This document shows, piece by piece, positions 10,034-41,728 of a DNA stretch of 49,582 bases (position 1 is the first letter of the stretch; each line of letters starts with the position of its first letter). Under the pieces are notes generated by a model. That model was not told the DNA's origin and ran no database searches. It saw only the letters and a list, made by a program, of their open reading frames with translations. Both the position numbers and the translations under genes were made by a program. This DNA comes from Asterionella formosa. Its lineage: Eukaryota. The stretch is from contig NKIB01013951.1 in the NCBI GenBank assembly GCA_002256025.1, forward strand, positions 1 through 49,582. The letters are read 5' to 3'.

Positions 10034-10821
10034 GAGTTTGCTGTGCTTTTGATTTCATTGCTCATCAATACACACTACATGTTGGTCTTTGTTGATGCTT
10101 TCCTCGCTCGCCGCAGTTTTTAACAGCAAGAAGTACCGGGTAGAGCTACCAGATACCAGGTACCAGGTACCATGCAATTTTGGCACCATGGCTGATGTGG
10201 CTGACGAGATTCAGAGGTAAGCACATACCGGTAATCATACTAATGGTACCAGGTACCTAGTACCAGGTACCGGTAGGCACCTACGGGTCGTTAACTCCGG
10301 GTCCCTGATATGGTACTAACAGGTAGGAGTACCAGTTAGTACGTAGTTGGACCATCGACACAGGCCACTACCGGCATCCGTGTACAAACCTTAATCCAAA
10401 GACCACAGAGCATTCGAAAAAGGTTCCAAAGTGTACTACCGTACTAGTAGACACCTCAAATCCTTCGATTAGGGGCTAAATAAAATTATGGGTTGAGGGG
10501 CCATCATTGCTTTCATGATAAGTTGCCAGTATGAGAAATGAACCTAGTCTGTAGCTAGAATAGTGCAGGTGAATGCAAAGATGCAACTTTGAATTTGTCC
10601 TTGGTTCATCTTTTCCATGATGTCCAATCTGCACTGTATTTGGCAACTTGTTTGCACTTACAGAAGTAGTCTGAGATTTCCATAACTATGGAGCTCAATG
10701 AAATCAAGTCTGTACTAATAGGCTATGGTTGATTTGCTATGGAAGTGATAGATGTATAAATATAGGGTTCACAGCATGAGTTGAGAAAAACAAAATTAAT
10801 CTTTCTCAGTATATGTAATTA

Positions 10822-11955
10822 CTATATCCCCTCCAACTTAGCAAACACAAACAGTGGCTGATCTTGACCTTCAGATTTCAATAAATTGGCTAAATTGTGC
10901 AGATTATGGTCCACTTGCATCCAGTTTGCAGATATAAGGGGCCATCGGACTGCACCATAAATGCGATGTGCATTCATCACCACCCTGTCCCTTCCTGTTG
11001 GTATTCCTAACACAAGTGCTCCTCCAGGCTTTGTTACACACCAACTACGAGCAATTGCCAACAAGTCTCCCCACGGGTTCAATGCATCACCATAACGACC
11101 CAATCCAGAGTGCTCTACCGAAGAATACGAGACAATGGTGTCAAAGAGCCCCAATTTCCCATTCAAGTATTCCTCTCGGAACTCATGTGGTGTCAAAGTT
11201 TTGATCTTGGGGTGAGTGGACACAATTTTGCCATATTCTAATGTCACAACTTCCTTGGCTCCAAGCAGCAGACAGATGGCTTCAATCCAAGGCCTCTGCG
11301 AGCCTATGACAAGTACCCGACTACCCCGTATCTTCCCAGTAATTTTTAGATGCTTGAGGACTTTGTTGGTTGTAACAAAGCCATAGGACCCTTCATGTGT
11401 ACCATTTTCAAGTTCAAGCATAATTGTTTTGATTTTCTCTTCGTCCCAATGATTCTCAAGGGCATTTTGACCTAAATATATACTTTTAAATTGCTTCCAA
11501 TGAACAATTTCGACTGATCCATTCAAAGAATACAACGAGTGAAGTCGTTTGGGCAATGGGTACGGAACCGAATTCTCACTTGCATCAATATCTTCTGATG
11601 CCATGATTGCTTGGCAGTCCACGTGTGCTCTGACATGTGGAAGTATCAAAGAGTTTTTGCTGTTGCTCTTGATAGTGATGGCAGAAAGTTTTTCCATGGA
11701 ATCAACTTCGCACAGGGTTCCGCATATCTTTTTGATGCGCTCAAGACGAGGTAGGATCTCCTCGTTCAACAATATTTCCTGTTGATCTTCATCACGATGC
11801 TGATCAACGCCCCTCGTTTCGTCTAATGCTATGATTGTGGCATCCTTCTCGTTCTTTTTTTTTGGCTCTGTAGTAGTTGCAGATTGGTAACGGAGTGATA
11901 GATAGCCAAACAGTACGAGTACGAGCATGCAAAACAAATATTTGTCCTTCGTCAT
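10822..11955 (-). CDS. DUF268-family (methyltransferase-like) type II membrane protein
   Basis: VLVIGSQRPWIE...VVTLEY...SSVEHSGLGRYGDALNPWGD...KPGG...NAHRIYG is the DUF268 signature. N-terminal transmembrane anchor. Confidence 0.85.
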   Translation of the reverse strand: MTKDKYLFCMLVLVLFGYLSLRYQSATTTEPKKKNEKDATIIALDETRGVDQHRDEDQQEILLNEEILPRLERIKKICGTLCEVDSMEKLSAITIKSNSKNSLILPHVRAHVDCQAIMASEDIDASENSVPYPLPKRLHSLYSLNGSVEIVHWKQFKSIYLGQNALENHWDEEKIKTIMLELENGTHEGSYGFVTTNKVLKHLKITGKIRGSRVLVIGSQRPWIEAICLLLGAKEVVTLEYGKIVSTHPKIKTLTPHEFREEYLNGKLGLFDTIVSYSSVEHSGLGRYGDALNPWGDLLAIARSWCVTKPGGALVLGIPTGRDRVVMNAHRIYGAVRWPLISANWMQVDHNLHNLANLLKSEGQDQPLFVFAKLEGI

Positions 11956-12094
11956 TGTTGGATTTACTTTGTGTGATGGTTATTAGGGTCATTGCCATGT
12001 GGACTCGTACAACCAAGGTAGGTCCGTCCGGTAATCGAGATGTTTAGCTTAATCTTTTCGTAAGTTTAACCGTGTTTTACCGGACTTTCCAAGG

Positions 12095-12153
12095 TACCTG
12101 GTACCAGGTACCGTACCAGGTACCAGTCCGGAGGAACTACCTGGTACCGGTAC
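12095..12153. repeat. Chain of TA-delimited CC(N)GG units (representative of many upstream regions)
   Basis: TA-CCTGG-TA-CCAGG-TA-CCG-TA-CCAGG-TA at 12095-12122. Similar chains at 10154, 15177, 26409, 37537 and 37612. Confidence 0.9.
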
Positions 12154-12465
12154 AAGGTACTACTACCTAACCACTCGTCGTCCTGTCCTCGGTGAGAAAT
12201 CCCCTCGTCTCAAAGCAAGGCAGAACAGCGTCGAGATTTTTGCTTCACGCCAGGCGGACGAGCGTTTGGCTGATGATGCATCGATACCATTTCCACAAAT
12301 TAGCAACCGGTATTACCAGTATGTATTTGTACATGTATTATCCCTCTCACTTTTGCTTACCAGGTGGTACCTGGTACACCGCTAGTTGAACCATGGCATG
12401 TCATTGAATCCAATTCTAATCCGCCCACTTCAACCTTGGTGTTATTGTCAACCGCCAAGATCATT

Positions 12466-13551
12466 ATGCATCAAGGCAAGCATGCTCCACTACCATCTCA
12501 CTTTGTAGATTCGCATCATCACTTCTTGGATACGAAAAATAACACCTTTCAGACGTTCCTTGCCAAGTGTTGCCCTGACGAAATATATCTCCCTTCCAAC
12601 TACGAATCAGATGTTACACATGTCTTGAAACATAATGGCATTACCCTTATTGGTACAGTCCATGTAGAGTGTATGCCAGATGAGGGTGCATTGGAAGTGG
12701 CATGGGTGGAGTCACAGCAACAGGATACCATGGTTCGTGCCGTTGTGGGGTCGTGTGATTTGGCATCGTCTAGTGTTGAGAAAAGTCTGAACGAACTGAT
12801 TCAAGCATCTCCACGAGTCAAGGGAGTTCGATGGATCCTTGACTGTGGTGGTGATGGAACATCAGCTTTTGAACCCAATACAGCAACTCATGTTGCTACA
12901 ACTCGTCATGGTGGAATTGATTATCTTCGAGGTGGTGGTGGTGGTAGTTGCAACAATAACAACACTGACATTGCGGTTTTAGACTTTGAACGGGGTTATG
13001 CATTACTGGAAAAGTTTCAGTTGTCATTTGATTTACAATGTGCTCCAATACAATTTCAAGCAGCTGCTAAATTGTGTGCCAAGTATCCCAATATCCCAGT
13101 ATGTATCAATCATTTGGGAAAGCCAAGGCAGTTGTTAGGACCCGACGTAGTCCCAATGATAACAAGCAACAACAAAACAACAATCACCATGAATCAAAAC
13201 GAACTCAGAACATGGCGAGATGGAATGACTGCCTTGGCAGCCCTACCGCACGTTTATGTAAAGATCTCTATGATAGGGTATGCCATTCCAGGATGGATTC
13301 GTACTCCGGAACGTACAAAAGTGGCGAAAGATTTATGTCGAGAGGTGGTGGAACTCTTTGGACCACAAAGATGTATGGTAGGGTTGAATTGGTGGAAAGA
13401 CAGTGCATGTTCCGATTCGGATGGTGCAAGCAATGTAGGTCCAGATCCAGTGGAATTGTTGCAATGCATATCTGATTGGTTTTCTGACTACAGTCAAGAG
13501 GATAGGGATTCTCTGTTTTACAAGACAGCAAGCAAGTTTTATAGATTTTAA
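12466..13551 (+). CDS. Amidohydrolase_2 family protein (sugar-lactonase-like)
   Basis: VDSHHH metal motif, VHVEC, VKGVRWIL, LSFDLQ, INHLGKP, VYVKISM, FGPQRCM, TASKFYR. First true ATG is at 12466. Confidence 0.85.
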   Translation: MHQGKHAPLPSHFVDSHHHFLDTKNNTFQTFLAKCCPDEIYLPSNYESDVTHVLKHNGITLIGTVHVECMPDEGALEVAWVESQQQDTMVRAVVGSCDLASSSVEKSLNELIQASPRVKGVRWILDCGGDGTSAFEPNTATHVATTRHGGIDYLRGGGGGSCNNNNTDIAVLDFERGYALLEKFQLSFDLQCAPIQFQAAAKLCAKYPNIPVCINHLGKPRQLLGPDVVPMITSNNKTTITMNQNELRTWRDGMTALAALPHVYVKISMIGYAIPGWIRTPERTKVAKDLCREVVELFGPQRCMVGLNWWKDSACSDSDGASNVGPDPVELLQCISDWFSDYSQEDRDSLFYKTASKFYRF

Positions 13552-13593
13552 AATGAAGGAATGTATTATCGAATATGGTTTTCCTTTTTCTCA

Positions 13594-14450
13594 TCATAGT
13601 GGCAACATCTCTGCTTCACCATATTTGAACCCATTTTTCTTTGCGCTCCCGTACACCAACTTCAACCCAACTTGAATCAATCCAAACGTCAACCCTAATA
13701 CATTGGGTACATAAATATTGACATCATTCATGTCTAAAATCCCCACCACGGTCCATAGGAAGCAATTGAGTACCGATGCCAGTGTAAAGGGTAGTGGGAT
13801 GGATTCTGCAGACTTTGTCGAAACAACAGTTTTAAGGGCAGCCAGAGGTGACCCAAACATGGCCACACACAAAACGACACCCAAATTTCCCACCAACGGT
13901 GCTGGTTTGGACAAGGTTAGGGCCATCCCAACAGTCAACAACACAAACGCGACGCAGCCTTGAATATGTCCCATTACAGAACCGGGAAATGTGGGAGATT
14001 GTTTTGGAGCATATTTTGTAAATTGCAACATGTAATATAAACCCAGCACCAGTCCAACGAAGTTGGTGGCCCATATTTTGGGCTCTTGTTTGAGAATTCC
14101 TGAATCAAGTCAACAAGTCATGTGGTGGTAAGTTGTTGAGTTTGTTTTCAAATGACGAAGGCACGATTGCTGCGCTTGTCATTCGATTAACACGTACCGT
14201 ATGTTACCCACACAAAAGCACTCGATACCATGCTCGAGTAAGGAAGAAGTGGTAAGGAGCCCACGGATTTATCTTTGGATACCTGCTGTAACGTTGGAAG
14301 TGGAGCGAGAAACACCGCGATGGCAGCGAATGGAGCGACTTGGCCGCATCCCTGTACCCAAAGTGGGACAGTAGCAGAAGACATTGACATTGCTAGTGAT
14401 GTAGTACCGGAAGTAGGAACAGCAGTGATAGCGATAGCGCCTGGCAGCAT
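13594..14450 (-). CDS. SWEET: SWEET/MtN3 sugar transporter, 2 exons (14450-14198, 14099-13594)
   Basis: FLAPLPT...SVGSLPLLPY...WVTYG|ILK...N and MFGSPL...KSAESIPLPF...W..G...YVPN.LG repeats. GT-AG intron 14197-14100 restores the frame. Confidence 0.92.
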
Positions 14451-15545
14451 ATCTTTTTGTGATGTGTGCGTTTTTGTGATTTATTTTAGCTATGTTTGCA
14501 TACAGGTATTTATACTACCGGTATGTACACCGGTTTGCTTTTGTTGTCATAAATATTCTTTACGCACAAATAAAAATGTATCGTTATGCGACGTCCATAG
14601 CTAAGGATATACCAGGTGCAGTAGTAATGTAGTACATGTGGTTGGGGAGTACCTGGTATATATCTGGAACCTGGAGAACGAGGACCTCGTACCTTGTTAC
14701 CGTGAGTATTTACCTGGAATTTCCAGTAAAACATGAAGTTAAATATCTCGATTACAGGACCTTCCTGGTGGGCTACGATACGGTACCAGGTAGCAAGTAA
14801 CAGGTACTCCCCATACTGTAGTCTACCCGTACTCCTGCCGTCTATGAATCTGTTACCTGGACTAGAAACCACCAACGGTACCCTGGTACCTTTTTTCGTA
14901 CCGTACTTGCCATACTTTCAGGAGATATCTCGAAGACGGATCTTACTACAGTACAGGTACATTTTCACTACTGTATATAAATAGAAAGAAAATAGGTTCA
15001 TCCACAATACATATACCGGTACATGTGCTTCTCATTTCCGACAACTTGCCTGATACCGGTACCTGATACTGGTACTTTACTAACGGTACTCCTGGATTTG
15101 TTACTCCGTTCCTACAGGTACGACGGCAGTATATGTACAGATACATACGATATGATATCCCGATCGATACATATGGTACCTGGTACCAGGTACTCCACCT
15201 CGTTGGATGGACGACTGTGCTGTGGACTTTTCAGTACCAGGTACCCGATACATTCGCTGTGGTTGCCACAGAAAATACAAACCATAGCTACGACCGGTAA
15301 GCATCATGTGCGTATGTATACAGTTACCGGTACCTGGTAGTCTAAAGCTCTACCGGTATATCGTATGTACATACGAGCATTATTTTTCATTTGTTGTGAA
15401 GGGACCACTGTCATATGCTCTATCTGTGGGTAGTCCAATAATAATGAATGAAAACCCAGGAGGACAATGACCCAGACGGTGACGACGAGCAATCAACAAC
15501 AACAACAACCACCACCACTCCATTCGAAAGAAATACTGCCAAACA

Positions 15546-17114
15546 ATGGCAAAACACAGCGATGAGAGCATCGACAATGATGAGCTCAGGAAGCGCTCAA
15601 AACGATCACACAAGCTCAAGTCCAAAAGGACGAAGGAGAAGAAGAAGCGAAAGAGGCGACGCAGCAGCAGTGATGAGGAAAATGACGAGGAGAAGCGACG
15701 CGAACGAAAAAAAATGAAGAAAAGATCCAGAACAAATCATGATGATGATCATCAGAACAAGAAAACAAGACAAGCAGACGAGGAACGTCATTATCAATTT
15801 GCCAATGCCCTTGTGAACTTGTTTGATGACCACCCCGCCTTGTCGACAGAACTACCATTCATGTTGATTCGTCTGGCATCGGGGAATTCTTTAGATTTAT
15901 CGCAAATGTCAGACGCAACTGCACCCAGTGGATTGGAGCAAGTTTTTCAGACCATGACACGATTTGGGCTCGTTCACCAGAACAAGTCGTGGACTTGGAA
16001 CTCGCCTAGTACTCCTGCTGGCAGCAATACAAAGTCCGAACTATTGTTATTGAGGATTGCTAGAACACTACTAAATCAAGTGGGAGTAACCATGGAAGCA
16101 GTGGAAAATTTTGGAAAGAAAAAGAAGAAAGATTTTTCCGAACACTTTTCTGAGGATCCGGTCACGAAGGGAACCCCAGTCACCAAGGTAATTCAAACGG
16201 AAACGATAGAGCTCCTGGAACACTTTGGCAAAAAACGGAGTGATGTTGTACCATCACTGGCCGATCAACTGGGTGGCCTCTGTCAAATGGTTATAAAAGG
16301 GGAACCCATTCATATTGACGGGATTCAGGACGAACAACTGAGACTGGCACTAGAGAAAGTTTTCCTTGTCGCTGGCTTGATGGACTGCGAAGGCGACCGC
16401 AACGTAACGGGATATTGTCTACCATCAGATACTAAGCATTATGAGATTGCTCGCTCAAATATAGAGACTGTCCTGTATACCTGCCGACAATCACAAATCC
16501 GAGGTCCTCTCCCTGCGTCCATGTCAACAACAATACCATCAAGTGCCTTTTTTGGTGGCGACGACAGCGATGTTGATGAAGGTCCTGTACCAGCGGATAG
16601 TCAATCTCGACGCACTGCTACTATGCCTCGTGAAACTATACAGGCCATGGCAGTCAAACGAAAGGACGATCTGGATAGACTCAACCCAAATTATGCCCAA
16701 GAACAAGAATCCGGCGATCGAGACGAGTGGATGTTACATCCAGGAGAGCATGATTTCTTGCAAGGAATCATCTCAACCAAAGCGCGTAGTTTTCAAAATA
16801 AAAAAGTACGAGAACCACAAATGATGGATGCTGCTCCAGAAATTATGGACCCAAAGGTTCAAGCAGAGGTGGATGCTATTTATGCTGCGCATAAGGAAGC
16901 AAGAGGTCCTTCACTCATGGATCAGCATCGAGCGAAAGTGCTGGAAGAAGCTTCCAAGAAAGCAGCCAAACAAAACAAGGGCGCGTACGGATGGAACCGC
17001 GATAAGGATCTCGATGCTGGTCGCCGTGTGGACAAAGATGCATTGAAAGTCATTCTAGGTGGCGGGGGAAATGAATTGAAAGACAAGTTTCAGGGCGGGT
17101 ATGGACGTTCTTAA
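15546..17114 (+). CDS. DUF3752 / GPALPP1-like nuclear protein
   Basis: Lys/Arg-rich N-terminus; C-terminal RDEWML...RGPSLMDQH...WNRDKDL...LKDKFQGG. Confidence 0.75.
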   Translation: MAKHSDESIDNDELRKRSKRSHKLKSKRTKEKKKRKRRRSSSDEENDEEKRRERKKMKKRSRTNHDDDHQNKKTRQADEERHYQFANALVNLFDDHPALSTELPFMLIRLASGNSLDLSQMSDATAPSGLEQVFQTMTRFGLVHQNKSWTWNSPSTPAGSNTKSELLLLRIARTLLNQVGVTMEAVENFGKKKKKDFSEHFSEDPVTKGTPVTKVIQTETIELLEHFGKKRSDVVPSLADQLGGLCQMVIKGEPIHIDGIQDEQLRLALEKVFLVAGLMDCEGDRNVTGYCLPSDTKHYEIARSNIETVLYTCRQSQIRGPLPASMSTTIPSSAFFGGDDSDVDEGPVPADSQSRRTATMPRETIQAMAVKRKDDLDRLNPNYAQEQESGDRDEWMLHPGEHDFLQGIISTKARSFQNKKVREPQMMDAAPEIMDPKVQAEVDAIYAAHKEARGPSLMDQHRAKVLEEASKKAAKQNKGAYGWNRDKDLDAGRRVDKDALKVILGGGGNELKDKFQGGYGRS

Positions 17115-17170
17115 CTAGAAGATTGTAAAAGTGGGACTGTCTCTGCCTTTTAGACTATAGCATTGTTTAG

Positions 17171-18367
17171 CTATGGTGTAATATAATTGAAAAACAAGAG
17201 CGTCAAGGCCATGGCAAATACGACCGTTGCCATGCGGTGCTTGGACTGTTTTGTCCGCTGCGCCGCATCTACCAAACTCTCCTGACCTTTTTGTACATTT
17301 TCTTTACTTTGGACTGTCGTTTCATAAACGACTTCAATGTCCTGCTGCTGTTCAGAAACGAGCGCACTGAATTGAGAGAGCAATGTTGTAATTTCCGTCA
17401 TTCGCGCTTCTACTTGTTGAACCGTATCAAGATCATTGGTTAAATTGACCTGAAGTATCAAGGCTTCCTGAATCATGGACTCTTGATAACGCGACGGAGA
17501 TACGTCCGGTTGTCGTTGATACGGGAGAGGTTCTGATTTAGGTTGCTTTTGTTTCGTTGAGATGGGATTTGTTTCCAGCTGAGGTGACTTTGTCGAGGAG
17601 CGTGTGTTGTCAAGTCTACTTTTGGGTCTAACCAGATCAGAGGTTTCGAATTGGTCCTTATCGTCATACAAACTCATGAATGATCCGCTTGAAATTTTAA
17701 TATCGTGCTCTGGAATCATTCTAATATCCCTTCCCTCCAGATGTTCTAGCAGGATGCGACACTGCAGAGGGCACTGATATAGAGTCAGTGCTGCTCTACT
17801 TCGTAGTTTCTGCATCGTCCCAAATGGTTCGGCAATATCATGACGCAATGTCAACAACAAACACGCTACAATACCACTACAGTGTTGAACGTAATCGTGA
17901 TTTTTGACTGTCGATATTGTCTTGCGCAGAAATTCCAATTGATTCGCCGTGGTGGCCACAAACGAAAGTATGGTAGACTCTAGCAAGGAAGCGTCTGTGT
18001 CGTCCGAATTGGAAGCCGATAGATAGGATGATTTCTTTCGTTGCAGCAGGGAAATGATTTGATCCATTCCATTGTCAATTAGTATGGCGTTTCCTATCCA
18101 AGGATCAAAGGAAGCTTCGTCGTGATTGCTAATATCCTCCGCATGGTCGTCGTAGTCGTCGTCCCCCTCTTCCAAGAGGTTCAAAATAATGGTATCACTG
18201 GAAGCTGAAGCAGTCATCAATCCTGGCACTTTCGCTTCGGCCACTGAAGCACTCTCGTATCCCATGACCTTTTGACAGGACTCTGTCCATTCAAGCTGGA
18301 GCGAACAGGACCCGTAAAATGGTGCCGTTACCGCCGTCATTGTCAACTGATGACTGAGATCGCTCAT
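17171..18367 (-). CDS. Qa-SNARE, syntaxin-18/SYP8/Ufe1-like
   Basis: SNARE motif VEARMTEITTLLSQFSALVSEQQQDIE...NVQKGQESL followed by a C-terminal TM anchor. Start at ATG 18367 (MSDLS) is inferred. Confidence 0.8.
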   Translation of the reverse strand: MSDLSHQLTMTAVTAPFYGSCSLQLEWTESCQKVMGYESASVAEAKVPGLMTASASSDTIILNLLEEGDDDYDDHAEDISNHDEASFDPWIGNAILIDNGMDQIISLLQRKKSSYLSASNSDDTDASLLESTILSFVATTANQLEFLRKTISTVKNHDYVQHCSGIVACLLLTLRHDIAEPFGTMQKLRSRAALTLYQCPLQCRILLEHLEGRDIRMIPEHDIKISSGSFMSLYDDKDQFETSDLVRPKSRLDNTRSSTKSPQLETNPISTKQKQPKSEPLPYQRQPDVSPSRYQESMIQEALILQVNLTNDLDTVQQVEARMTEITTLLSQFSALVSEQQQDIEVVYETTVQSKENVQKGQESLVDAAQRTKQSKHRMATVVFAMALTLLFFNYITP

Positions 18368-18676
18368 GAAAATGAAAATGAAAAAGTATGTACAAATGAA
18401 AGGACCGGTAACAGTAACATACCCGTACAAAAGTACATGGATCAAAATCATTACTGGCGTTATGTATGTAGAAAAATACACATGCATTCCGCTAAAGAAA
18501 CATGGTACTGTTTATACCTTTCAAAAAAATTACATGATTGTTCTTACTTACCGGTACCAGCAGGTAGTCTTGTGATGAGTACCGTAGAGCATCAGCTCTG
18601 TTCTTGGTTTCCCAGGTCATTCGCATGTTTTGATGTTGACTACCAGGTAGTTACTGGTAGTAAGTACCGGTCGACC

Positions 18677-20317
18677 ATGACGAAGGATACGTCGAAACGA
18701 TCGCCAACGGCAGTCGCTACCGTCATCAAGGGCTGTCTCTTTGTGGCTGTCCTTGGATTATCCCTTCGAACCTTCGGGGTACCATTCTGCTCGTTCATGA
18801 TTGGAGGATTAAAGCCAATCCCCTCCAGAATTACACTGGACTATTTGGCTCTCATTCTGCTGGCGATATCAACGTTCCTTCCCAGGTCAAAAGCAAAGGC
18901 TTTCTTCCTCACTATCACGCTTGCCTTTAGCGTAATAACAGCTGGAAGCCCCACCAATCGATGGACTCTGACCATTCCCGTTGCCATTTCCTTGGCTCTT
19001 CAAGCCCTGCGGCGATTGCCTCCATTTCAAGCAGACTTGCCGAAACGATTCTTGAGCGCATTGACTATCCTTTGCTGCTTGACTTCTGCGTCCCTTTGTA
19101 TTTTGTTCCCGGCGACTCAAATTCCTAATCCTACTGGCAAGTACAATGTTGGCCTTATGGATTTGCATCTGCCAGTCAACTTGGCAGCTGCGTACACGGG
19201 GGAGAATTTTTCCTGCTCGGACACGACTGACGGGTTTGTGTCAATTCGTATCATGTACCCAACCAAGGAAGATCCCGTACGAGTGCCATACGTCAAGCCA
19301 GATATTGCTCTGCAATATTTGAAGGTGAGCATGCAGTTTGGTGCGCCGCCTCCTCTCAACAAATTGAGCTGGTTCCTTGACAACTGGCGCTTGGCGGAAA
19401 TTTCAGCCAAACCTTATGCTAAGCCCATTCAAGTTGACGGTGGAATTCCTATCGTGGTATATTCTCACGGGATGGGCGGTCACAGTACAGTGTACACGTA
19501 CCAGAGTATGATGTTGGCATCCAACGGGAATGTTGTCCTCCAAATTAACCATGCCGATGGAAGTGCGCCCGTCGTGGAACGAAAAGATGGAGATTTGCTC
19601 CATCTAGACTTTTCCCTGCACGACGTTTGGGCTGCTGGAGAAGAAGAAGAATACACAAATCGACGTCGTGATCAAACGGATCACCGTGTTGTCGAAATGT
19701 TGGCATCCGTGTTTGCACTTCAAAACTTGAATCACAGGGACATTCCTGAGACGAAGGGCGTCTCGTTTGTCAACAAATTGAAAATATCAGAAATTCATCT
19801 CATGGGGCACTCCTTTGGTGGAGCAACTGCTCTTACTGCTGCCTTCCGAAGGCCAGAATTGGCCTTTTCGGTCATTGCGCACGAGCCAGTATCTGACTGG
19901 ATGCCTGACGATGCTCGACGAGCCTTGTTTCCTGTCGATATCATGGCAAATTGTCCTTTTCACTATGAAGGTGGAACTGGTGGTCTACCTTTGGATGCAA
20001 AACAAACGCAAGCAACAATTAAAGACATTGATATTATGTTCTTGTTTTCGTCGGAGTGGTACTACAAAAATTGGGGTCGCTGTGATATCATTGAGTGGAT
20101 GCACGACCACGGTAAGCTATGCCAGGCCTGCACCACTAGTTTCGATATGATATGGAATGCCCATCACAACGAGTTTTCGGACAGTTGTATGATGACACCA
20201 GTATGGCTAGCGAGAGCCGTCGGCTTGACTGGAAAACGAAATCCTATTGAGACATCAGAAGAGATCAGTCAACGTACTTTGAAGTTTTTGGAACAAGTAA
20301 GATTAAGGAAGAGTTGA
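18677..20317 (+). CDS. PAF-acetylhydrolase-like alpha/beta hydrolase with N-terminal membrane helices
   Basis: PTGKYNVG, VVYSHGMGG, LASNG..V..INHADGSA, catalytic GHSFGG, AHHNEFSD. Start at ATG 18677 is inferred. Confidence 0.88.
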   Translation: MTKDTSKRSPTAVATVIKGCLFVAVLGLSLRTFGVPFCSFMIGGLKPIPSRITLDYLALILLAISTFLPRSKAKAFFLTITLAFSVITAGSPTNRWTLTIPVAISLALQALRRLPPFQADLPKRFLSALTILCCLTSASLCILFPATQIPNPTGKYNVGLMDLHLPVNLAAAYTGENFSCSDTTDGFVSIRIMYPTKEDPVRVPYVKPDIALQYLKVSMQFGAPPPLNKLSWFLDNWRLAEISAKPYAKPIQVDGGIPIVVYSHGMGGHSTVYTYQSMMLASNGNVVLQINHADGSAPVVERKDGDLLHLDFSLHDVWAAGEEEEYTNRRRDQTDHRVVEMLASVFALQNLNHRDIPETKGVSFVNKLKISEIHLMGHSFGGATALTAAFRRPELAFSVIAHEPVSDWMPDDARRALFPVDIMANCPFHYEGGTGGLPLDAKQTQATIKDIDIMFLFSSEWYYKNWGRCDIIEWMHDHGKLCQACTTSFDMIWNAHHNEFSDSCMMTPVWLARAVGLTGKRNPIETSEEISQRTLKFLEQVRLRKS

Positions 20318-22822: not shown

Positions 22823-23299
22823 GCTTAATGATATACTGGTAGATGTTGTTGTTATTGACAGTCTCTATAAATATAAACTATACAATATCAAGGTACTGGC
22901 TGATGGTGACAGGTACCAGTAGCTATACTTCTGATATTTCTTTCCGAAAAGTGGACGAGGGGTAAAAATGCGGCACACTTGACATCCTCTGCCTCCGAGA
23001 AAATCACTGGTTCCGAGGAGAGAAGGAAAGAACCAATGCACGCCCCCATGTGATGATGAAATACTGACACCTACCGGTATTCTATGTAGTTCAAGGGTAC
23101 CGGGTACCCGGAGGTCCAGATATGCATACCCTACCGGGTATCACGCATCATATTTATGTCAAGAATATACCGGTATGTCGAAGCAAGTGATGAGCTCATC
23201 ATAATAATTATGAGTCGCAGTCGAGTGAGTCAACTTTGGGTGTACCAAGCACCCATTAACTATCACAAGATCTTATTCTGGGCATAATGAGCCTGAGGA

Positions 23300-24450: not shown

Positions 24451-24641
24451 TTCACTACTTGCTAGCAATACTTGTGTTCTATATAAGGAACTAATAAAAG
24501 TATAAAGCAGTTGTACAAAATTAAAAATTAAAAATCATTTTGTTTATTATGGTCTGTTAAATGGTAATGGGAAATTTCTCATGTTCCATTCATGATTGTA
24601 TAAATTTGTATACATGCATACATATATAGAACAAGCATGCA

Positions 24642-26180: not shown

Positions 26181-26588
26181 TACTAGTATGACCGACATTG
26201 AAAAGTACGTGCTTGATTAGTCTGACTCAATATTTTTTTAACCCTACCTCGAGCTAGGGGTTCAAAGTATATCACACACCGGGTACCTGTACCCGGTATC
26301 AGGAAAATGACTGACCTCATTTTCCTTTTCTCGTCGCTCTCGAGACGATGCATAATTGAGTGCAACGCCAAGAGAAAGAATTACGGTACCTGGTACCCCC
26401 ACTGTATGTACCAGGGTACCTGGTACCTGGTACCGGTAGAGGGAAAATTACCTCTTCGTGTTTTGTGGACAGGTCGATCTATTATTGGCTCGGCGTTGCG
26501 TATCTGGGAGTGATTCGTTTCCTCAGTGGTAAACCTTTAGATTGTCCTCAAGGTTGCTTGAATTGAGTGTTATGTGCAGGCCCAAAGT

Positions 26589-28514: not shown

Positions 28515-29170
28515 ATGGGTTCAGGTGTTACATGGGATAAGGACGAGGATAAGGCGGCGCTCTCTTGGTCCTGGGATGCAGCCAGTGATGACTCAATCAC
28601 TGGGATTGGTCAGTAAGCAAGAAGTTTTGGGGTCAGGTGTTTGAGATCTATGTAGGTGTCATCCCAGATGGCAAGAAACAGACGTCAACAGGGTGCGCAG
28701 CTCGATGAACAACAATAATAAAGACGTCACAAAGTTCTCCAGCGCAAGTAACAAGTATTCCAAAATCAGGATGGACAGAGGAGAAATACAATGAAGCAGC
28801 CAGCTATGGAGCATGCTATTTAAACTGGAAGGAAAAGGTCAAGAGCAGGGTAGAGAGTGCATTTTCAATTGGTGCTGGCGAATTTGAAGGAAGCCCCGAA
28901 GTGAAAGTTGTGTTGCAGTTATGTTTGGGTTCAACCAAAATCCAAGGTTGAGGATCTAAAGGATGGCCTGTTGTGTCCCATGGGGCAAAGGTCGCTAAGA
29001 ATGAAAAGCACATTGAAAATACTCAGCTTGCCAATGAGCAAAATCATGCAATGATGCTTGAAAGAAAGGTGAAAACTCAACATGATGAGTTCCTATTCCA
29101 ATCATCAAAGCAAAACGTTATTCGCCAGTATCTGATGGAGTTGATTTTTTTCGCATTCTTGCATTTTAGT
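28515..29170 (+). pseudogene. Decayed Myb/SANT (NAM-associated type) Harbinger accessory gene
   Basis: MGSGVTWDKDEDKAALSWSWDAASDDSITGIGQ*, then KDVTKF and HGAKVAK in other frames. Fits the W..ED..L..AW..S.D...G..Q pattern. Confidence 0.6.
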
Positions 29171-29177
29171 ACCTGGT

Positions 29178-31384
29178 GAGCAATCCCGCATATCAATATA
29201 GATGCATATAGGGCTACAGTTATATCATATATATCAGAACTCAATAATGAGAGAACTCGACTAACACCAATTGTATATTTTGGTGTCAACTAGGAGAACA
29301 AGTTGCATATCAAGATTAAATAATAAACTCATTTATTCAACAAATACTACTACTTCTAGTTAGATAGCTACTTCACTTTTGATTCAAAAAGAGTCCAATT
29401 AGAACAGGACAAACATGGCAAGAATTTATTCAAGGGGTTCCTCTCAATCCTTTGCTTGATCAAAGATTACAATGTATTGACTATTAAAACTAAAACTTTT
29501 CAAGTTTCTGAATCGCTCAACCAAGATGTGATTGATGGAAGCTCTGTGGGAGTGTTGTTAATCAGAGTGAGTCAATTTTGTGATGCGGCTAACACATGTG
29601 CTTTTAGACCTGCAGATAACTTTTCCCATTTCAGAAGGTGTTAGACCGACATTGCTTTATCGGATTGGTCAAATGTTGAAGTTCAACCAGAAGATCAATC
29701 CTATGATAGTTTCGATGAAGAAATGATTTTGTGGCTTGATGATTGTCTTCCAATCAATAGTTTTCAACGTCAATGTCAGTGGATGCTTCGCTATCTATAT
29801 AAGCCCTTTTCTATGTTGGTGATGGATTTCGCTGCTCGTTTTAAAATTAATCAGGCTACTCCAAATAATGCCTCATCCAGAAGATCAAAAGTGATTGTCG
29901 AAAGAAGACATGCACATCATCATTATCCGATTGATGCCCGATGAGTGGCAACAAGAATTTGAATTGAATCATGCCAATACTTTGGACCAAACAATTTGCT
30001 CGGTTCTTAATTACTTAGAGAATCAACATTCCTTTAAGGATCGAAACAAGCACCTTCCCAAGAACACTTTTCAGACTAGCGCATAAAATCGTCTTCGTAT
30101 TGCTGAAAGCAATCGTGTGATGCATCAAGAAACGAGGGCGTCAGTCGTCAGTTTTACCAAAATAATTGCAATCCAAGTGGTTGTGGATGGGCGCGTGCTA
30201 TTGTGAATGCGGCTGGTTGTGCATGGGATCGACAAGCGACCATCCATCATCAAGCTCTACAAGCCAGTGGTATCTACCACGATTATTGTGGCCCTTGCCC
30301 GGTACACCCTAAGTGTGCCAGTACTTGGGGCAATTGCTTCCAGAACCCTTGTTGTCTTACTCAAGGCGGTCGAGGAGGTTGTATGGCTGCTTGTCATAAT
30401 GGCCATGGACATTTCGGTTTTGGTGGTTATGGCAGTGGAGCACACAGTAACCCTACAGAAAGCTATCATACTGACACTGCTAAACCTGTGCCTGTTCCAC
30501 TTACTCATATGTTAAATGCATGGGGTTGTAATGATCACCCATCCGGCTGGGGTAACATGTCACATGCCGATCTTAACGAGACAATGTCTATCCAAGAAAT
30601 TTCAGTGGTCACAAACCCTCCTCCTGATCAGTTAGTGGCTTTTGTCTCTACTATACAACAGCAGAATGCTGATCACCATCACAGAGGTATGTGCGATAAT
30701 AGCAATGCTATTTATAATGACTCATTGAGCATGTCTCACGTCAGTCATCACCTGGATAATATTGTTTATTTACAGGTTGAATATACAATGGATACCGCTG
30801 TTGCTGTAACACGAGACATATATAAATGTATAGATGGACATGATGTTCCATATTTATACCAGGGTCTGATTCCAGTGTATTGATTTGATTCTGATGTCTC
30901 TATTAGCGCCACGATTGGTGGATGCTATCCTTATGCATAAAATTTGACAAGTACTATTTGATAGTGGAGGATCCCTTTAGTAATTTCCAGAGCATATTAG
31001 GATTCGATAAAAATAGGTACATCAAAATATAATAATAAAACATCATGTAAACCTTCTCAATCATCAAAAAATGTGAGAGGATGTATAGGAACAAGTTATC
31101 CATACAAGTCATGGTGCTATTTCCAAAATCAATGGTTAAACCAACTTGACGAAAGAAGTCACGTCCTAAAATTACATCAAATGTACATTGCTTGGCCATT
31201 GAAAACTTGGGGCATTTTGGTGGTAAAATACGAGCAGATCAATTAAATTCAGGGAATATTAGATCATATAAAATAACACTGGCATGAGATGAATAAGTAC
31301 CAGCTATGGTATTTATTAATTGGTATGTCTTGTTAGATAAAGAAATACCTTGAGGCATAACCTGTTCCTGTATTAAAGATGGAT
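29178..31384 (+). mobile_element. Decayed Ty3/Gypsy element: partial 5' LTR (29178-29375), gag, and protease with an inverted segment
   Basis: QCQWMLRYLYKPFSM...FAARF, MPDEWQQEF, CPVHPKCASTWGNCFQNP (gag); VLFDSGGS 30951-30974 on +; FDVILGRDF..VGLTIDF on the - strand. Confidence 0.8.
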
Positions 31385-31389
31385 AAAGT

Positions 31390-33364: not shown

Positions 33365-33929
33365 TGATGATGATTACCTATATATTTTTCCGCTATTCTG
33401 ATTGGTGGAGACAACCTGAAGATTAATCTTCGGGAAGAAACGAAGATTGTTCAAGAAAATACGAAACAATAGGGTCAGGTTGTCGGGGATGACCCCCGAA
33501 ATATTCGGGCGAAGCAACGAATGCAGATTGATCTTCGTAATCGGGGGGGGGGATTTGCGAGTTATTTAGCCCGTAAGGGACGGAAATACGAAGATTAATT
33601 AAACGCCCAACACAGGTAGGGGCGACTCAATCTCCGTAATTCGGGCACCGTAAGACGGGGCTATAAAAGTGTGGCAGAGTGGTCGATCCCGCCCATCAAC
33701 ACAGCTGTAAATAGGGTTAGAGTTATATCATACATATCAGAACTTAATTAGAATAATGAGAGAACTCGACGAACACCTCTATTGTATACTTCGGTGTCAA
33801 CTACCGGTACGGTAAATAAACCAGTTGCACATCAAGATACCGGTAAAATAATAAACTCATATACCGGTATACCGTTTTATAGCTATGTTCAACAAATTGT
33901 ACTACCGGTAATTCTAGTAAGATACTTCA
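33365..33929 (+). mobile_element. Solo LTR related to the Gypsy LTR at 29178-29375
   Basis: 33680-33929 aligns with 29178-29375 and both end in CTTCA. TATAAAA at 33662. The TG start near 33363-33365 is inferred; no clear TSD. Confidence 0.7.
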
Positions 33930-34932
33930 CCTGGTACTAGGTACCATAGTCTTCTCCACCGTATGTTCGTCACGAAGGACAAAATACAAGAGAGTCAGTT
34001 AAATGTCGCGACCGTCCGCCAGGTTACTTGTTCCGCTTCTCTTGTTCGACTCCCAACCAGCCCTGTGCATTACTAACTATCCTGGATGGTCGTCATCTTT
34101 GCTATGTACTCCCTCCTTCGTATCACCCAAACAAGTTCCTTGATAGAGTCGGATGGTTTTCCAATTTATATCTACGTACGTACTACGTGTTCTCATCTTT
34201 GTATGTGTTGATCATGTACACAGGCACTCAGGTAGACCTCGTGCAGGTACCTGGTAGGGTTAGTTATCAGGTCCTGGTACCAGCTGCCAGATATCCTTGA
34301 ACGCACGGTGGTGAATACATTGACGACAAAGTAGTTACAGGTAATACCGGTAAAAATATAAACAGCAAGTTGCTGTAATTTTGTCGAACTAAGGAGTTAG
34401 CTATCTTTATCCCAGATTAAATTGTTTATTTAAGCAAAATGACGCAACTTGCAGGTGCCAGGGTACCAGATACCAGTTACCAGTACCTGGTACCATTGGT
34501 TAGATGAGGAGTAGGACAGGAGTACCGGTACCTGTGCTGGAGCTTCGTACCCGTACCTGATTCACTCAGCCAGCGTTACCTGTCACATTTGTCTCAAGAC
34601 CATTAGAAAACATCAACTGGTGGTGGGACAGTGTCCCCTGGTTGCCCAAAAATTTGCAAATTGCTCACTTCCCAGTTCTTTTCGGAGGTTTGTCCATAAC
34701 TTCCTACCGACAACTGGGAACATGCTTGGGTTGTTCGTTTGTTGCGATCTTTTGTTTGCTTTTATGTGTGTATCAATTACTCAACCTACATAAGAAAAAG
34801 AATGCTGGGGGAAATGTGAATATTTCCTGAAAGCATGCATAAATTATCCATCTGAATACCGTACTGATTAAATCTTTCCTAATAGGTTTTCAAGCTCTTT
34901 GCTGTTTTCCCTATCGATAGAATCTGGTCATC

Positions 34933-36752
34933 ATGTCAAACCCGACCAGCTTTGAAACTTGCTCCGCCTTGTATAATGTCCAGAGCGATCAGGCAGGGTT
35001 CCTCAACTGTAGTGCGGTCGCTGCGCAGGCAGTAAGTGAAAACAATCGAGTGTGTTTCAGCCGTTGAAGTGACTGTACAATCTGACAGTTCCTTGATGCT
35101 TCGCTCCCTTTCAATTTAGGCTGTTATCGCTGCAAATGAAGATCTTTCCGGTGGTCTTAACCAATTCTTTTTGATCTTTGGGGTAAGTCAATTGAGATGC
35201 TTATCTTGAAACCCGCTGGGGCACTGACAGTCGACGCTAACCGTCTAGTCCGTTTCAGGGAGCTCTCGTCTTTTTCATGCAAATTGGCTTTGCCATGTTG
35301 TGTGCTGGATCGATCCGGGCCAAGAACGTCAGGAATGTGATGTTGTGGAACCTTTTGGATTCCGCTGGTGGTGGAATCTCCTATTACTGTGTTGGTTATG
35401 CTTTTGCCTATGGCAGTGATGGCAATGATACCGTGAAGACTTTTGTCGGAACATCCCAATTCTTTCTCGCTGGAAGCGATATCAACTACTCGTTTTTCTT
35501 CTTTCAATGGGCCTTTGCAAGTGCTCTATCTTCGATAGTGGCTGGAACAATCGCAGAGAGGACTAAGATGATCGCCTATCTGGGATACTCCACATTTTTG
35601 GTTGGATTCGTCTATCCGGTGGTAAGCCTACTTATTATAGTGTCATGACTTGAGTGACCAGGTAACTCGACTAATTTTACCATTCCTCTTTCTTTCAATG
35701 TGCAGGTTTCCCATGCATTCTGGTCGACCCAGGGATTTCTAGGCATTTTTGCTGCGGAACCGCTATGGGGTGCGGGTGCTATTGACCTTGCCGGATCTGG
35801 TCCAGTTCACTTGACTGGTGGAGTCGCCGCCCTTGCTGCAGCCCTTATTCTAGGTCCCCGTTTGGGACGCTTCTATGATCGCGATGGAAATGTATTGGAT
35901 CCACCTGCTGAAATTCCACCACATTCCGTCGCTCTCCAATTCCTCGGAACGTTTGCCCTCTGGTTCGGCTGGTATGGATTCAACCCCGCTTCCGTCCTTG
36001 CGACTAACACCACCGAGCTTGGTACTGTTGTATCTCTTGTCGCTGTAAATACGACTCTTTCCGCATGCGCTGGGGCACTGTCTGCCCTGTTCACCTCTAC
36101 ACTCTTTGATTACTGGTCTACTGGTATTCACACCTACGACGCAGTCTATACCATGAATGGTTGCCTCACCGGTTTGGTCGCCATCACTGGTGGATGCGCT
36201 TCCGTCCAACCCTGGGCTGCTATTATCATTGGAGTGATTGCCGGATGGGGCTACTTGGGAATGAGTAAGCTCTTGATCAAGTGGAAGATTGATGATGCTG
36301 TGGATGCCATTCCTGTCCACATGATTGGTGGAACTTGGGGAGTTCTTGCAACCGGACTTTTTTCTGCCCCTACTCTCTTGAAGAGTGCCTACGGCATTGA
36401 CACACATGTTGGTTGGTTCTATTCGTTTGCTCGAGGCAGTGGTGACTTCACGTTGCTTGGCTGTCAGTTGGTGAGCATCGTTTTTATCTATGCATGGACA
36501 TTTTCCACCATGGGAGCGTTTTTCTTGGGTATGAAATACATGGGTCAACTCCGAGTTGATGAATTGGAGGAGGAGGTTGGTATGGATATCAGTCGCCACA
36601 AGGGATCTGCCTACGAGGTCGGTGACAGCAGTGCTGCCCACAGCGACGCTGTTGACAGGCTTAACATGAGCCGCAGTGGCCGAGTGGTCAAGATTGACGG
36701 ACCCAGTAAGGAGGAAGAGGCCGTTTTGTCGGTTGAGGAAGTTACTGCCTAG
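34933..36752 (+). CDS. AMT1: Ammonium transporter, AMT1 type, 4 exons (34933-35031, 35120-35182, 35259-35621, 35706-36752)
   Basis: LVFFMQIGFAMLCAGSIRAKN, FFFQWAFA...GTIAER, DLAGSGPVH, LWFGWYGFN, IDDAVDAIPVH. Three phase-0 GT-AG introns keep the frame. Confidence 0.95.
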
Positions 36753-37330: not shown

Positions 37331-37967
37331 GATGGTGTCGTATACCTGTATCTACTATGTAGAAGTACTCGTTGCTCAATATTTTTGTCAGTGTGCCTAT
37401 TTTAGATAAGCTATGAGCGAAATAGCAAGCAGTGCCAGTTGCTCGTCTTTGTTATTCGTGTTCCGTATGAAAAGTGTGATTATTGTACCGGTCGCACAAG
37501 GCATGGTACCAGTACTACCTGTTACGGTGGTTGAAATACCCGGTACCTGGTACCAGGTACTCCTTCCTGCCTGGTGGTAAGCACGTTGATGGTCAATGTC
37601 CACTGCCTTGGTACCAGGGTACCCGTACCAGGTACCTGGTATCAGTAAAATGATGGGAGTACATACCGGTATGAATCCTTTTCGTAATCATCATGTGGCT
37701 ACATACTGCTGGTATCATCGTAACCGGTACTTCAATGTGTCACTACAGTACTTGGATCTCGACTTCGTTTGCCCTCATCCGCCCAATCGAAAGAGTCTTC
37801 TCCTTTTGCGTTGTTGCAATACGGATAGTCTTCACTAGCTACTCAAGTCTGATATAGAGGGAAACCATGAACGTTTAGTGAAGGGAAACGTAAAACTTCC
37901 ATCTTGATTACCTGGTACTCTACTACCACTCAAGTAAAAGTAACTCTGTCCCAACAATACATTGAAC

Positions 37968-38702: not shown

Positions 38703-39527
38703 CTAATTATTAGAGGGCATTTGTGGGGAGGAATTGTTCCCAATTATAAATTAGAAAGACCATGAAGCAATGTAATTTCATGAGAAAGGAAGCCCCACAG
38801 GAAAATTTCGATTTTCCTAGTAGACCATCATGATGTGCAATTTTCATGGTCAATCGTAATTTTGGTTGAGGGCAGGCTATCATTGCAAAGAGGTAGTGCA
38901 TTGCCTCTAATTTTGAAAATGAGTGTCATTTGATTTGTTTTGTTGCTCAATTCTCCATCAATCCTGTTCTTCTCCCCAATGTATATCTTCTTGTATCAAG
39001 TTCTCCCTTCTTACCTTGCCATTTGTTGGTGGTGGTCATCTGGTATCTCAACCCCAATTTGAGAAGGTATTACCACCTAGACTACCGGTATTATGTTAGC
39101 TATTATATATACCGGTCCATGTATGTATAGGAAATTATACTTTGGTGATGGGTACCGGTACCCGGCACCGGAGTACCTGGTACCTGGTATGTAGTTTACT
39201 TGTGACGAGGAGGAATGAAACATACCGGTAATCGGTTTCTGCAGACATACCAGAAAGGTCGTGCGAAGAGATCTAATAGTGTAAACATCCCCTGATGAAC
39301 ATTTGGCCAATCATATGAAAATATAAATAGAAATGGCAAGCAATGAAGTCATAGATTTCCTCCCCCCCCCCCATCATCGTCACTTGCCCCCACAAAAACT
39401 GTATAAACAATCTAGTAGTAGCTAAAATATACTTCCCATCAAGAGGCAAGCTTATTGTTCCAACCGACACGCTGACCCATTGAGAATATCTGTTGATCTC
39501 GATCCTTGCTGTCTCTCTCCTTCACGC

Positions 39528-40349
39528 ATGATGATGCTAGCAACTCAACTCTTGCACCAACGAAGTTCACATGGGCTACTCCTTGCAAGGTCCATAATCA
39601 CTCGAACCGCCCCAAAGATTATTACCGGTAGAATTGCTGATAATGTTTCAGCAACTGTTCGGACATTTGCGAGTGGGCCTCCAAAACGAGCCTTTCCTCA
39701 GTATATGATGCATGCCCCTAATTGTGTGCTCGTCATGAAATGCATTCCTCCCGTCTTCAAGTATGGCACGAGTGCCTCTGGAGATTTCCTTACGGCAGAT
39801 TCAAAACTTGTGGGCAAGATGTTCTTCGAATTCACCCCCCGTGGCAATAAGGGGTATGTCTGGGCCAACACGACAAAGTTTGCGTTGACGGTGGAAGAAG
39901 TAGGCTTGCTTTGCCACCAATTGCCGCAGTCGCCAGTGACTATCGCGCGGGCCACTGGCAATCCCGCTATCGCTAATCACGACGTTATCAAGAAGTTGTC
40001 CTTTAAACCGACTGAAGTAACAGGAACATTGATTGTTACTGTGGATGGTACAAGAGATGGTGTTGGCGGATTTTCCCCTAATCCCCCTTATAATGAAGAT
40101 CTGGTAAGTACTGTTATATTTGATGAGGACGCAAATTCATTTTTTCTAACATCAGCCACATCTATACCGGTATAGGCATTTCCAATGTCAATGACTATTC
40201 AAGCGGGGGAGTTCAAGGTCCTGCATTCGCTCATGGAGACATCCATTCCTTACCTCACTGGATGGACTACAATGCTGGACATCAACATGGATGCTGCTAT
40301 CAATGCAGCACAGTCTCCTATGGAAGAAACTAACCCGTTTCCCTTTTAA
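39528..40349 (+). CDS. Whirly-like ssDNA-binding protein, probably mitochondrial, 2 exons (39528-40103, 40176-40349)
   Basis: FPQY...PPVF...GKMFFEFTP...YVWANTTKFALTVEEVGLL, and after the GT-AG intron 40104-40175, AGEFKVLHSLMETSIPYLTGW. Arg-rich presequence ending VRTFAS. Confidence 0.8.
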
Positions 40350-40882
40350 TGCAGTATAGGTACTCACTCTTATTCTCTCGTCATAATTCGTTCATCATGA
40401 CTCGTGGAGAAGTCACAGAATGAGACAGTGTTTTTACATTGGAAGAACGTGTGTAAGTACCGGAATTCATATTGGAGCTGTTTTCAAACAAGAATTCTAT
40501 TTTATAGTCTCCTAAAGTGAATGATACATATGGTTTCTTGAAACTTATTAGATTTTCCATTTCATGTGTCTTGAATATCATATAATGTGTAGATGAGAAG
40601 ATTCTTGAGTTTGTTCACAACTCCTTAATATGTGTATTGTCTGGTGATGCTCTGTGTGATTGAAACGTGTGGTAGTACCGGAGGTGGTGTTCCTCGTTTC
40701 TGGACACATCACGGGGCGGAACTGATGATTTATTGTTTTTCTACTTTTTCTGTTACAGTGTACTCGCAGAAAGTGCGCTGCATTAGATGCATGGTGGACT
40801 CATTCTATTACATATCATCATAGCTTTCTAGTTTCTTTTTAGCTATATTGATTGCTATACTTAAGCAATTGGAGGATACTTG

Positions 40883-41518
40883 TTAGTCATGAACCTCCAA
40901 GCCGATGAATCCAACAATTCCCTTCTTCTTCATTTTAGCGAAACCACCAACAGAATTGTCAATCAATGATTCTGTATTTTTCATGTAAAATCCAGATGGA
41001 TCCGGAAGACCGACAAAGCCAATATTCTTTTCAATGTCGTCAGGCATGTCGACTTTTCCGGCCACAACCACCACTTCGTCTCCTTTCATATAGGCCCACT
41101 CTAGAGTATCCTTGGCAAATATCTGTAGAGGAAATAGCCGTCGAGCGTGCTCTGAAATCAGGAGACGCTGCCGAATGACAGCAGCCTCCGTGTAGGCGTT
41201 ATCCTTGGTTCGAACCGTTCCCACCTGCAACCACTCATCAGCCGGAGGATCACTAACCACTCGCACGGCCACGACGAAGGTCTCCGCAGTCTTGAGGTCT
41301 AGATAACGATCCCATTGTTGTTTCGGCTTTAACTTGCTATCGCTCTTTTTCTTGTCGTTCTTGGCAGCGCCAAAGCCAGACATGAAAAGACGAGACGACG
41401 AGGAAGCAAATGTTGCATGTCGCTGCACGAGGTTGGCGCCTCCAACGAGTGGTGGCGCTGTCAAGAACGCTTCCGCTGATGCTGCGACCAAAAGTAACAG
41501 ACATGTAATTCGCTGCAT
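40883..41518 (-). CDS. Hypothetical plastid-targeted protein
   Basis: Signal peptide MQRITCLLLLVAASAEA-FLT followed by a Ser/Arg-rich transit peptide (SSSSRLFMSGFG). Confidence 0.8.
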   Translation of the reverse strand: MQRITCLLLLVAASAEAFLTAPPLVGGANLVQRHATFASSSSRLFMSGFGAAKNDKKKSDSKLKPKQQWDRYLDLKTAETFVVAVRVVSDPPADEWLQVGTVRTKDNAYTEAAVIRQRLLISEHARRLFPLQIFAKDTLEWAYMKGDEVVVVAGKVDMPDDIEKNIGFVGLPDPSGFYMKNTESLIDNSVGGFAKMKKKGIVGFIGLEVHD

Positions 41519-41728
41519 CGTTGTATATACGAACTAACAGGGTGGGATGATGGATGTAGTTTGCTGAGCGAGGAGGGTAAGCTTATCAGTGTGAGACTAA
41601 ATTGAAATTTTACAGTTCCTGGTACTTGGTACTGGTGGACCAAGTAACGAAAGTATGAGTGGTGTACATATGATTATTATTTCATTGCCGGTCATAGAAC
41701 CGTTACCATGGAATATATCATACGATGA

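Follow-up and report, generated by a model that had tools for sequence, protein, structure and literature searches.

Contig NKIB01013951.1 of Asterionella formosa was analysed as a single window of 49.6 kb (49,582 nt), which is diatom nuclear DNA. The subject of this study is a set of very short words in that window, TA-bounded units with cores of the type CC(N)GG, that stand singly or in chains upstream of its genes. Long intron-poor open reading frames (ORFs) encode proteins assigned with Pfam to PPR, SGF29-tudor, DUF268, amidohydrolase, SWEET and Noc2, and further ORFs of this kind encode histone deacetylase, ammonium transporter, prefoldin, 2OG-oxygenase and Whirly-like proteins. The gene models are provisional and are based on ORFs, Pfam and RNA contigs. 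The closest named relatives of the amidohydrolase are from the diatoms Seminavis, Pseudo-nitzschia, Nitzschia and Ditylum (49-55% identity), and other relatives reach up to 61-67% identity. A degenerate Copia-like retroelement with a gag-pre-integrase domain and three RVT_2 fragments in separate frames lies at about 42000-48300. The locus is present in public runs labelled as algae, freshwater or lake metagenomes or metatranscriptomes, which are represented by at least 20 entries from 13 studies, and several of the unit clusters are covered by DNA contigs at single-copy depth in three other runs, which indicates that the loci are real.

For the analysis, a unit was defined as CCNGG, CCGG, CCG or CGG, a strict word as TA-unit-TA and a double as two units sharing one TA. 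A total of 75 units were identified in the whole window, arranged in 58 maximal chains (45 single, 10 double, two triple and one quadruple). The chain at 12095-12122 reads TA-CCTGG-TA-CCAGG-TA-CCG-TA-CCAGG-TA, and strict chains also occur at 26417-38, 37537-59 and 37626-41. Comparison with 200 dinucleotide-preserving shuffles of the window revealed 75 strict units against 2.41 +/- 1.60 (maximum 8) and 17 shared-TA doubles against none. The original prediction, made from the sequence of this stretch, had described chains of TA-delimited units, and both this description and the chains it cited are confirmed; CGG, which it had counted as a separate unit, is merely the reverse complement of CCG. 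Of all 6-mers in the window, GGTACC shows the strongest enrichment, with 47 occurrences observed, 8.5 expected from base composition and 5.6 +/- 2.4 found in the shuffles (maximum 12). On both strands together, TA directly follows 62 of the 86 occurrences of TACCWGG and 54 of the 75 occurrences of TACCGG, and the short insert is bounded by TA on both sides, as it is in a Tc1/mariner footprint.

Analysis of the unit types revealed 27 CCGG, 31 CCWGG, six CCSGG and 11 CCG/CGG. Among upstream TA-X-TA words, the commonest non-trivial X are CCGG (17), CCTGG (15), CCAGG (11), CCG (6), CCCGG (3) and CCGGG (3), and the forms shorter by one base, CCAG, CTGG, CCTG and CAGG, occur three times each. The lengths between TAs (3, 4 and 5 nt) are randomly mixed, in the manner of repair junctions, and the unit types are likewise mixed at random across clusters, with no significant heterogeneity (permutation p = 0.24). 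Bins that bear chains show 10- to 60-fold extra contig depth and many chain-to-chain chimeric joints; hence, the same words must exist at very many other places in the samples. Scans with Rfam and for tRNAs detected no RNA gene either at the clusters or in the multi-copy DNA near 26231, and a viral contig collection gave no match to the chain pattern.

The counts of GGTACC and of TACCWGGTA in the different parts of the window are given below.

600 nt upstream of start codons (6,937 nt): GGTACC 36 (5.19 per kb); TACCWGGTA 26
Coding (20,147 nt): GGTACC 1 (0.05 per kb); TACCWGGTA 0
300 nt downstream, all five convergent gaps included (2,047 nt): GGTACC 0 (0 per kb); TACCWGGTA 0
Distal intergenic (12,585 nt): GGTACC 10 (0.79 per kb); TACCWGGTA 5
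Copia-like region (7,583 nt): GGTACC 0 (0 per kb), and no strict unit; TACCWGGTA 0

The core motif is present within 600 nt of the ATG in 14 of the 16 genes and within 1,500 nt in 15, the sixteenth gene having a degenerate chain only. Clustering 5' of nearly every gene and absence from the convergent 3' gaps, both of which had been described, are thus borne out. Four clusters are common to divergent gene pairs, and the genes are therefore not independent counts. The convergent gaps are short (42-155 nt), and stronger negative controls are provided by long stretches of intergenic and transposon DNA that are poor in units. At five promoter sides (those of DUF268, amidohydrolase, DUF3752, Noc2 and histone deacetylase), the poly(A) RNA contigs of run X8 stop 43-192 nt downstream of the unit closest to them, and the cluster at 18549-18649 is traversed by one RNA contig. 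These limits, which cannot fix the transcription start, hint that the units lie within the promoter proper. Whichever origin holds, the motif marks promoters sharply enough to help gene-start calling in this genome. The individual clusters are as follows.

5074..5351: CCGG, CCG and CCTGG units that precede the SGF29-like gene (3027-5012, minus strand) by 62-340 nt
7294..7352: about 59 nt that form an imperfect palindrome (82.5% over a 63-column alignment) with units and degenerate units, in gene-poor low-GC DNA far from annotated genes
10134..10275: seven units, 101-242 nt upstream of ORF 9251-10033 (minus strand)
12093..12152: six units (chains of four and two) in the DNA that separates the divergent DUF268 and amidohydrolase genes; the two RNA contigs have their 5' limits 135 and 192 nt short of these units
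14516..15358: 13 units spread broadly through the DNA that separates the divergent SWEET-like and DUF3752 genes, the final unit stopping 43 nt short of the RNA contig start at 15401
18549..18649: three units in the gap that separates the divergent genes 17171-18487 (minus strand) and 18678-20317 (plus strand)
22912..23175: cluster that precedes the Noc2 gene (minus strand) by 90-353 nt
26282..26438: cluster preceding the histone deacetylase ATG by 151-307 nt, stopping 59 nt before the RNA contig start and adjoining multi-copy DNA at about 26100-26285
33802..34530: cluster that precedes the ammonium-transporter ATG (35277) by 750-1,475 nt
37505..37671: cluster flanked by the divergent prefoldin and 2OG-oxygenase genes
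39083..39230: cluster that precedes the Whirly-like gene by 298-445 nt
41617..41640: degenerate chain that contains no strict unit and precedes the HHL1-like gene by about 100-120 nt

The range 10135..41640 to which the clusters had been assigned does contain them, and two more lie outside it, at 5074-5351 and 7294-7352. The cluster named at 41620 exists as a degenerate chain and contains no strict unit, and the one at 33800-34530, which had been listed as lying 5' of a gene, does hold units, at the distance from the ammonium-transporter ATG given above.

The way in which units appear can be followed in two copies of a repeat that form the only dispersed repeat pair in the window.

33679..33936, plus strand: repeat copy A, at the edge of a unit cluster, with units inside insertions relative to copy B
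29170..29376, plus strand: repeat copy B, the unit-free paralogue of A, in unit-poor, repeat-rich DNA

Alignment of the two copies with MAFFT revealed a mean column identity of 79% with long exact flanks, and all eight gaps represent additional DNA in copy A. Each TACCGGTA-type unit of A lies within an insertion of 5-16 nt that is absent from B. Copy B reads CAAC-TA-GGAG where A reads CAAC-TA-CCGG-TA-CGG-TA, the insertion starting right after the TA kept by B; AAGATTAAAT of B corresponds to AAGA-TA-CCGG-TA-AAAT in A, and TACTACTACTTCTAG of B to TACTA-CCGG-TA-ATTCTAG in A. At CTCATTTATTCAAC of B, copy A is 24 nt longer, the extra DNA starting TA-TA-CCGG-TA-TA-CCG. Realignment with affine gaps gave a similar picture with the borders moved (insertions of 7+5, 5+1, 16+8 and 3+3 nt). 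No unit in the pair was made by substitution of a near-match.

Among the matches listed, contigs of other family members, which have a very high summed depth, follow B through 29320-29366 and show no insertions there, and the loose-end consensuses around 29288-29314 are without units. Since the other family members resemble B, the change was probably a gain in A. Overall, units seem to arise by insertion at or beside TA, and of the evidence assembled here this alignment is the strongest that points to an insertional origin. The expectation that units would come by insertion and not by substitution agrees with the units of A in this one pair, which lie in insertions at or beside TA; the precise +CCGGTA border that was also expected was not found. 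The 258-aa ORF beside copy B matched no Pfam family, and no longer homologue of it was found.

An amidohydrolase profile retrieved, for comparison, 55 loci (295,362 nt) of other diatoms and algae, in none of which does protein identity exceed 54%. Analysis of these loci revealed 49 GGTACC against 61.6 expected, 0.11 units per kb against 1.5 per kb over the whole window, and no double unit in the 295 kb. In 28 of the loci, the DNA upstream of the orthologue (21.7 kb) contains three units, whereas the window's own 510-nt amidohydrolase promoter contains seven. No other TA-X-TA word was comparably enriched in the 55 loci. In view of this lack of enrichment, the units are lineage-specific and not a pan-diatom promoter element. 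No published description of the units was found in the main texts of the openly available literature, where the matches to the motif were cloning primers and unrelated work, and no genome-scale excision footprints were found among the literature matches listed.

The best single model for the origin of the units is that they are transposon excision scars, a reading that we hold tentatively and at rather less than an even chance. According to this model, the units would be short insertions, particular to one diatom lineage, that add a near-palindromic, TA-bounded CC(N)GG core to a nucleosome-free zone lying between divergent genes and, relative to start codons, roughly 40-450 nt upstream. A cut-and-paste transposon that targets TA would write them by inserting and leaving time and again: as the broken site is closed by end-joining, between one and three terminal nucleotides of each end of the element would stay behind, enclosed by the two TA copies, and the newly made TAs would be hit again to give chains. 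The transposon, its termini, its targeting to promoters and the repair route are what we infer. Mariner/Tc1 elements duplicate TA and the cleavage stagger of Mos1 is three bases (PMC4505599), and the canonical footprint of Sleeping Beauty is 'cag' or 'ctg' between the TA duplication (PMC5224488). Ends beginning with CCW, when trimmed and joined, would give CCWGG, CCGG, CCWG/CWGG and CCG/CGG, which are the main classes seen. Simulations in which the clusters were collapsed to their presumed ancestral sequence and the same number of units was re-inserted at random TAs yielded 18.3 shared-TA neighbours within the cluster spans and 8.8 with the zones widened by 100 nt on each side, against the 17 observed. 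The fit of this count suggests that chains need no special mechanism, provided that hits are confined to narrow zones. The promoters share only the chains, over no more than 34 nt, and the units thus sit in otherwise unique DNA. Going further, the promoter nucleosome-free regions of this lineage may be continuously rewritten by a TA-specific cut-and-paste element, with scars amounting to several per cent of the DNA in promoters and to almost the whole of some 60-nt cores, and with the palindromes maybe recruited for regulation; this wider proposal is possible though on the unlikely side.

Several observations weigh against an origin as excision scars. A search for terminal inverted repeats (16-nt arm, at most four mismatches, TA flanks) found no TA-flanked element with CC..GG ends in the 49.6-kb window, only chain-against-chain pairs coming up. 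Of the 191 ORFs of at least 70 aa, 66 were scanned as translations, and none of these has a transposase Pfam domain. Given the size of the window, both negatives are weak evidence. Single-end 3-nt scars, which are typical of mariner, are nearly missing upstream (CCA 0, CCT 0, TGG 2, AGG 0), and untrimmed joins (CCATGG, CCTAGG, CCGCGG) are absent there. CCTG/CAGG (nine) is as common as CCAG/CTGG (10), which a single fixed end sequence does not predict, and the six CCSGG units require variant ends or later mutation. To our knowledge, about five scars per promoter genome-wide would have no precedent. The evidence for insertion comes from one pair of copies that are about 79% identical, and the indel borders in that pair need extra bases or substitutions; none is demonstrably a precise unit plus TA, and as the borders shift on realignment no insertion can be called a precise unit-plus-TA duplication. 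The sole positioned strain indel in a unit, among the matches listed, is a 2-nt change at 18645 (CCAGG to CCG) by which no unit is gained or lost; it says little, as two of the four possible 2-nt core deletions yield another listed unit. The footprint reading of the original prediction is thus supported in part: positional bias, mixed lengths and the fit to repeated hits speak for it; the element was not found in the window, and the single-end scars are nearly missing.

The letters TA plus CCNGGTG stand at three boundaries of repeated DNA, 29170, 33936 (minus strand) and 26285 (minus strand), and at one further site, 14610; these sequences resemble the outer end of mariner inverted repeats. 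They could be transposon termini or merely mutated units, since a T-to-C change in an ordinary unit gives the same letters, and they serve as a lead and not as evidence. A candidate terminus reading ...CTTCACCWGG|TA was rejected because the family continues past this boundary in 13 contigs.

A strong rival to excision scars, possible though on the unlikely side as an account of how the units arose, is that a lineage-specific protein, either a dimeric transcription factor or a general promoter factor, binds them through the half-site TACC/GGTA with flexible spacing, and that selection keeps them as homotypic clusters without any special insertion process. Palindromic words of 8-9 bp within 600 nt upstream of 14 of the 16 genes, at a density about 100-fold that of coding DNA and with none in 3' regions or the Copia-like element, show the enrichment at gene starts that such sites would have, and the 43-192 nt between units and RNA contig 5' limits at the five promoter sides agrees with it. 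Perfect copies upstream are nearly as common as copies with one mismatch (17 vs 22 and 26 vs 18), and a chain-like segment stands at one fixed place (29366) in other copies of the 29170 family, as expected if the repeat carries a promoter. However, it would be unusual for a single dimer to accept three spacings (of 3, 4 and 5 nt between TAs), and overlapping sites that share a TA cannot be occupied simultaneously. Motif use is not common to related species among those at up to 54% identity, given the 55 loci without enrichment and the three units upstream of 28 orthologues, and the main text of a binding survey in P. infestans gives no stramenopile motif with a GTAC, GGTA or TACC core (PMC11267843). 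Selection on ordinary point mutation would also not be expected to yield an A/B pair in which all units lie in insertions and none came by substitution. Origin and present function are separate questions, and the two accounts could coexist: scars could have been co-opted and may now also serve as factor sites, which would be compatible with a scar origin.

Three further explanations have a lower probability than these. Repair of breaks confined to promoters, for example by end joining of the polymerase-theta type with templated copying of neighbouring units through TA microhomology, would need no transposon and is improbable; it agrees with units lying within short insertions, with their tight clustering in zones of 60-300 nt and with the absence of a transposon from the window. 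Yet the first unit of each promoter needs a source, chance supplying about one TACCGGTA per 65 kb (an estimate for equal base frequencies), and copying from neighbours would make the unit types uniform within a cluster, which they are not. Replication slippage of heptamer (GGTACCW) microsatellites is very improbable, in spite of the period-7 arrays of 2.9-5.6 copies that Tandem Repeats Finder detected at eight clusters and of the homogeneous (GGTACCW)n arrays present in many prokaryote genomes. Head-to-tail copies of one unit type are not what the clusters contain: single units make up 45 of the 58 chains, adjacent units are identical in three of 17 pairs where 4.0 would be expected by chance from unit frequencies, units of 5, 6 and 7 nt are intermixed, and the isolated units in copy A have no local template. 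There is equally little chance that a dispersed repeat (a miniature inverted-repeat transposable element, a short interspersed element or a long terminal repeat) inserted into promoters and that the clusters are what its copies or termini became after decay. The extra contig depth at chain-bearing bins and the three boundaries of repeated DNA that read TA plus CCNGGTG would fit such a repeat, but neither sequence shared beyond the motif nor defined ends, as a miniature element would have, were found. All-against-all BLAST of 14 non-coding regions detected similarity only in chains of up to 34 nt, with the exception of the self-palindrome at 7294-7352; the window has a single dispersed pair, A with B; and the supposed right end is internal, the family sequence running on in the 13 contigs. 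Some other origin accounts for the remaining probability.

Comparison of the units with known systems revealed partial likenesses. Tc1/mariner footprints, such as the canonical one of Sleeping Beauty, share with the units a few end nucleotides between two TAs and an ambiguous centre (W or S), seen here in CC(A/T)GG or C(C/G)G. The diatom units differ in being chained and confined to promoters at about 75 per 50 kb, in having CCGG, CCWGG and CCG cores instead of one fixed 3-nt scar, and in that no donor element was found in the window. Palindromic elements of promoters are known elsewhere: the 8-bp DRE/DREF element and clusters of BEAF-32 sites occur at Drosophila housekeeping promoters, and an 8-bp palindrome lies upstream of many apicomplexan genes. 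These are likewise short, often clustered and upstream of many genes in a compact genome, but they have one fixed length and known binding proteins, whereas the diatom units vary in spacing, overlap by sharing TA and appear as insertions. The P element and mPing are DNA transposons that target promoters, and the excision of mPing is precise. Such a preference for the 5' ends of genes would explain the placement of the units; the P element and mPing are seen as resident insertions, while the diatom units, if read as scars, would be accumulated traces of excision.

Homogeneous (GGTACCW)n tandem arrays of three or more copies were identified at no fewer than 110 bacterial genome or metagenome-assembled genome loci, with hosts that include Acidimicrobiia, Gemmatimonadaceae, Planctomycetota, Rhizobium and Streptomyces, and about two chance matches to the pattern were estimated in 596 Gb. 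These arrays have the same 7-nt period and the same letters as the diatom chains. At the 14 prokaryotic loci inspected, out of at least 110, a single unit type is repeated directly, in contrast to the diatom chains, which mix types and lengths and are mostly single units.

An origin of the units as scars would provide the first case known to us of transposon excision, and not insertion, as a major genome-wide author of promoter sequence, and the units would constitute a time-stamped record of the landing sites of the element. If they are factor sites, they would represent a near-universal, lineage-specific promoter code in a bloom-forming freshwater diatom, useful for annotation and expression tools.

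Some further features of the window were also recorded. Record lengths imply indels of +13, +6 and -7 nt in or near clusters, which were not used in the analysis. Multi-copy DNA lies at 29320-29366, 23340-25340, 26008-26674 and 28676-29999, and the summed contig depth is about 10,000-20,000 at 29333-29344 against about 6 in single-copy parts. The 13-nt word ATTTATTCAACAA occurs at 7969, 28495 and 29331, with a one-mismatch copy at 26072. A single poly(A) RNA contig (17186-22348) covers three genes of alternating orientation, and neighbouring transcripts probably overlap across the intergenic gaps of 56-190 nt in this stretch. The ammonium transporter is divided over two ORFs, 35241-35645 and 35658-36749, whose Pfam matches cover consecutive parts of the model, which suggests a short intron or a frameshift. 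Runs of N are present at 5740-5888 and 7608-7741; the latter is flanked by an identical 47-nt direct repeat (7561-7607 = 7742-7788) and looks like an assembly gap or a masked stretch. A tandem repeat with a period of 191 bp (2.8 copies, about 83% identity) occupies 48887-49427 and is adjoined by an AT-rich tandem repeat with a 21-bp period at 48415-48492.

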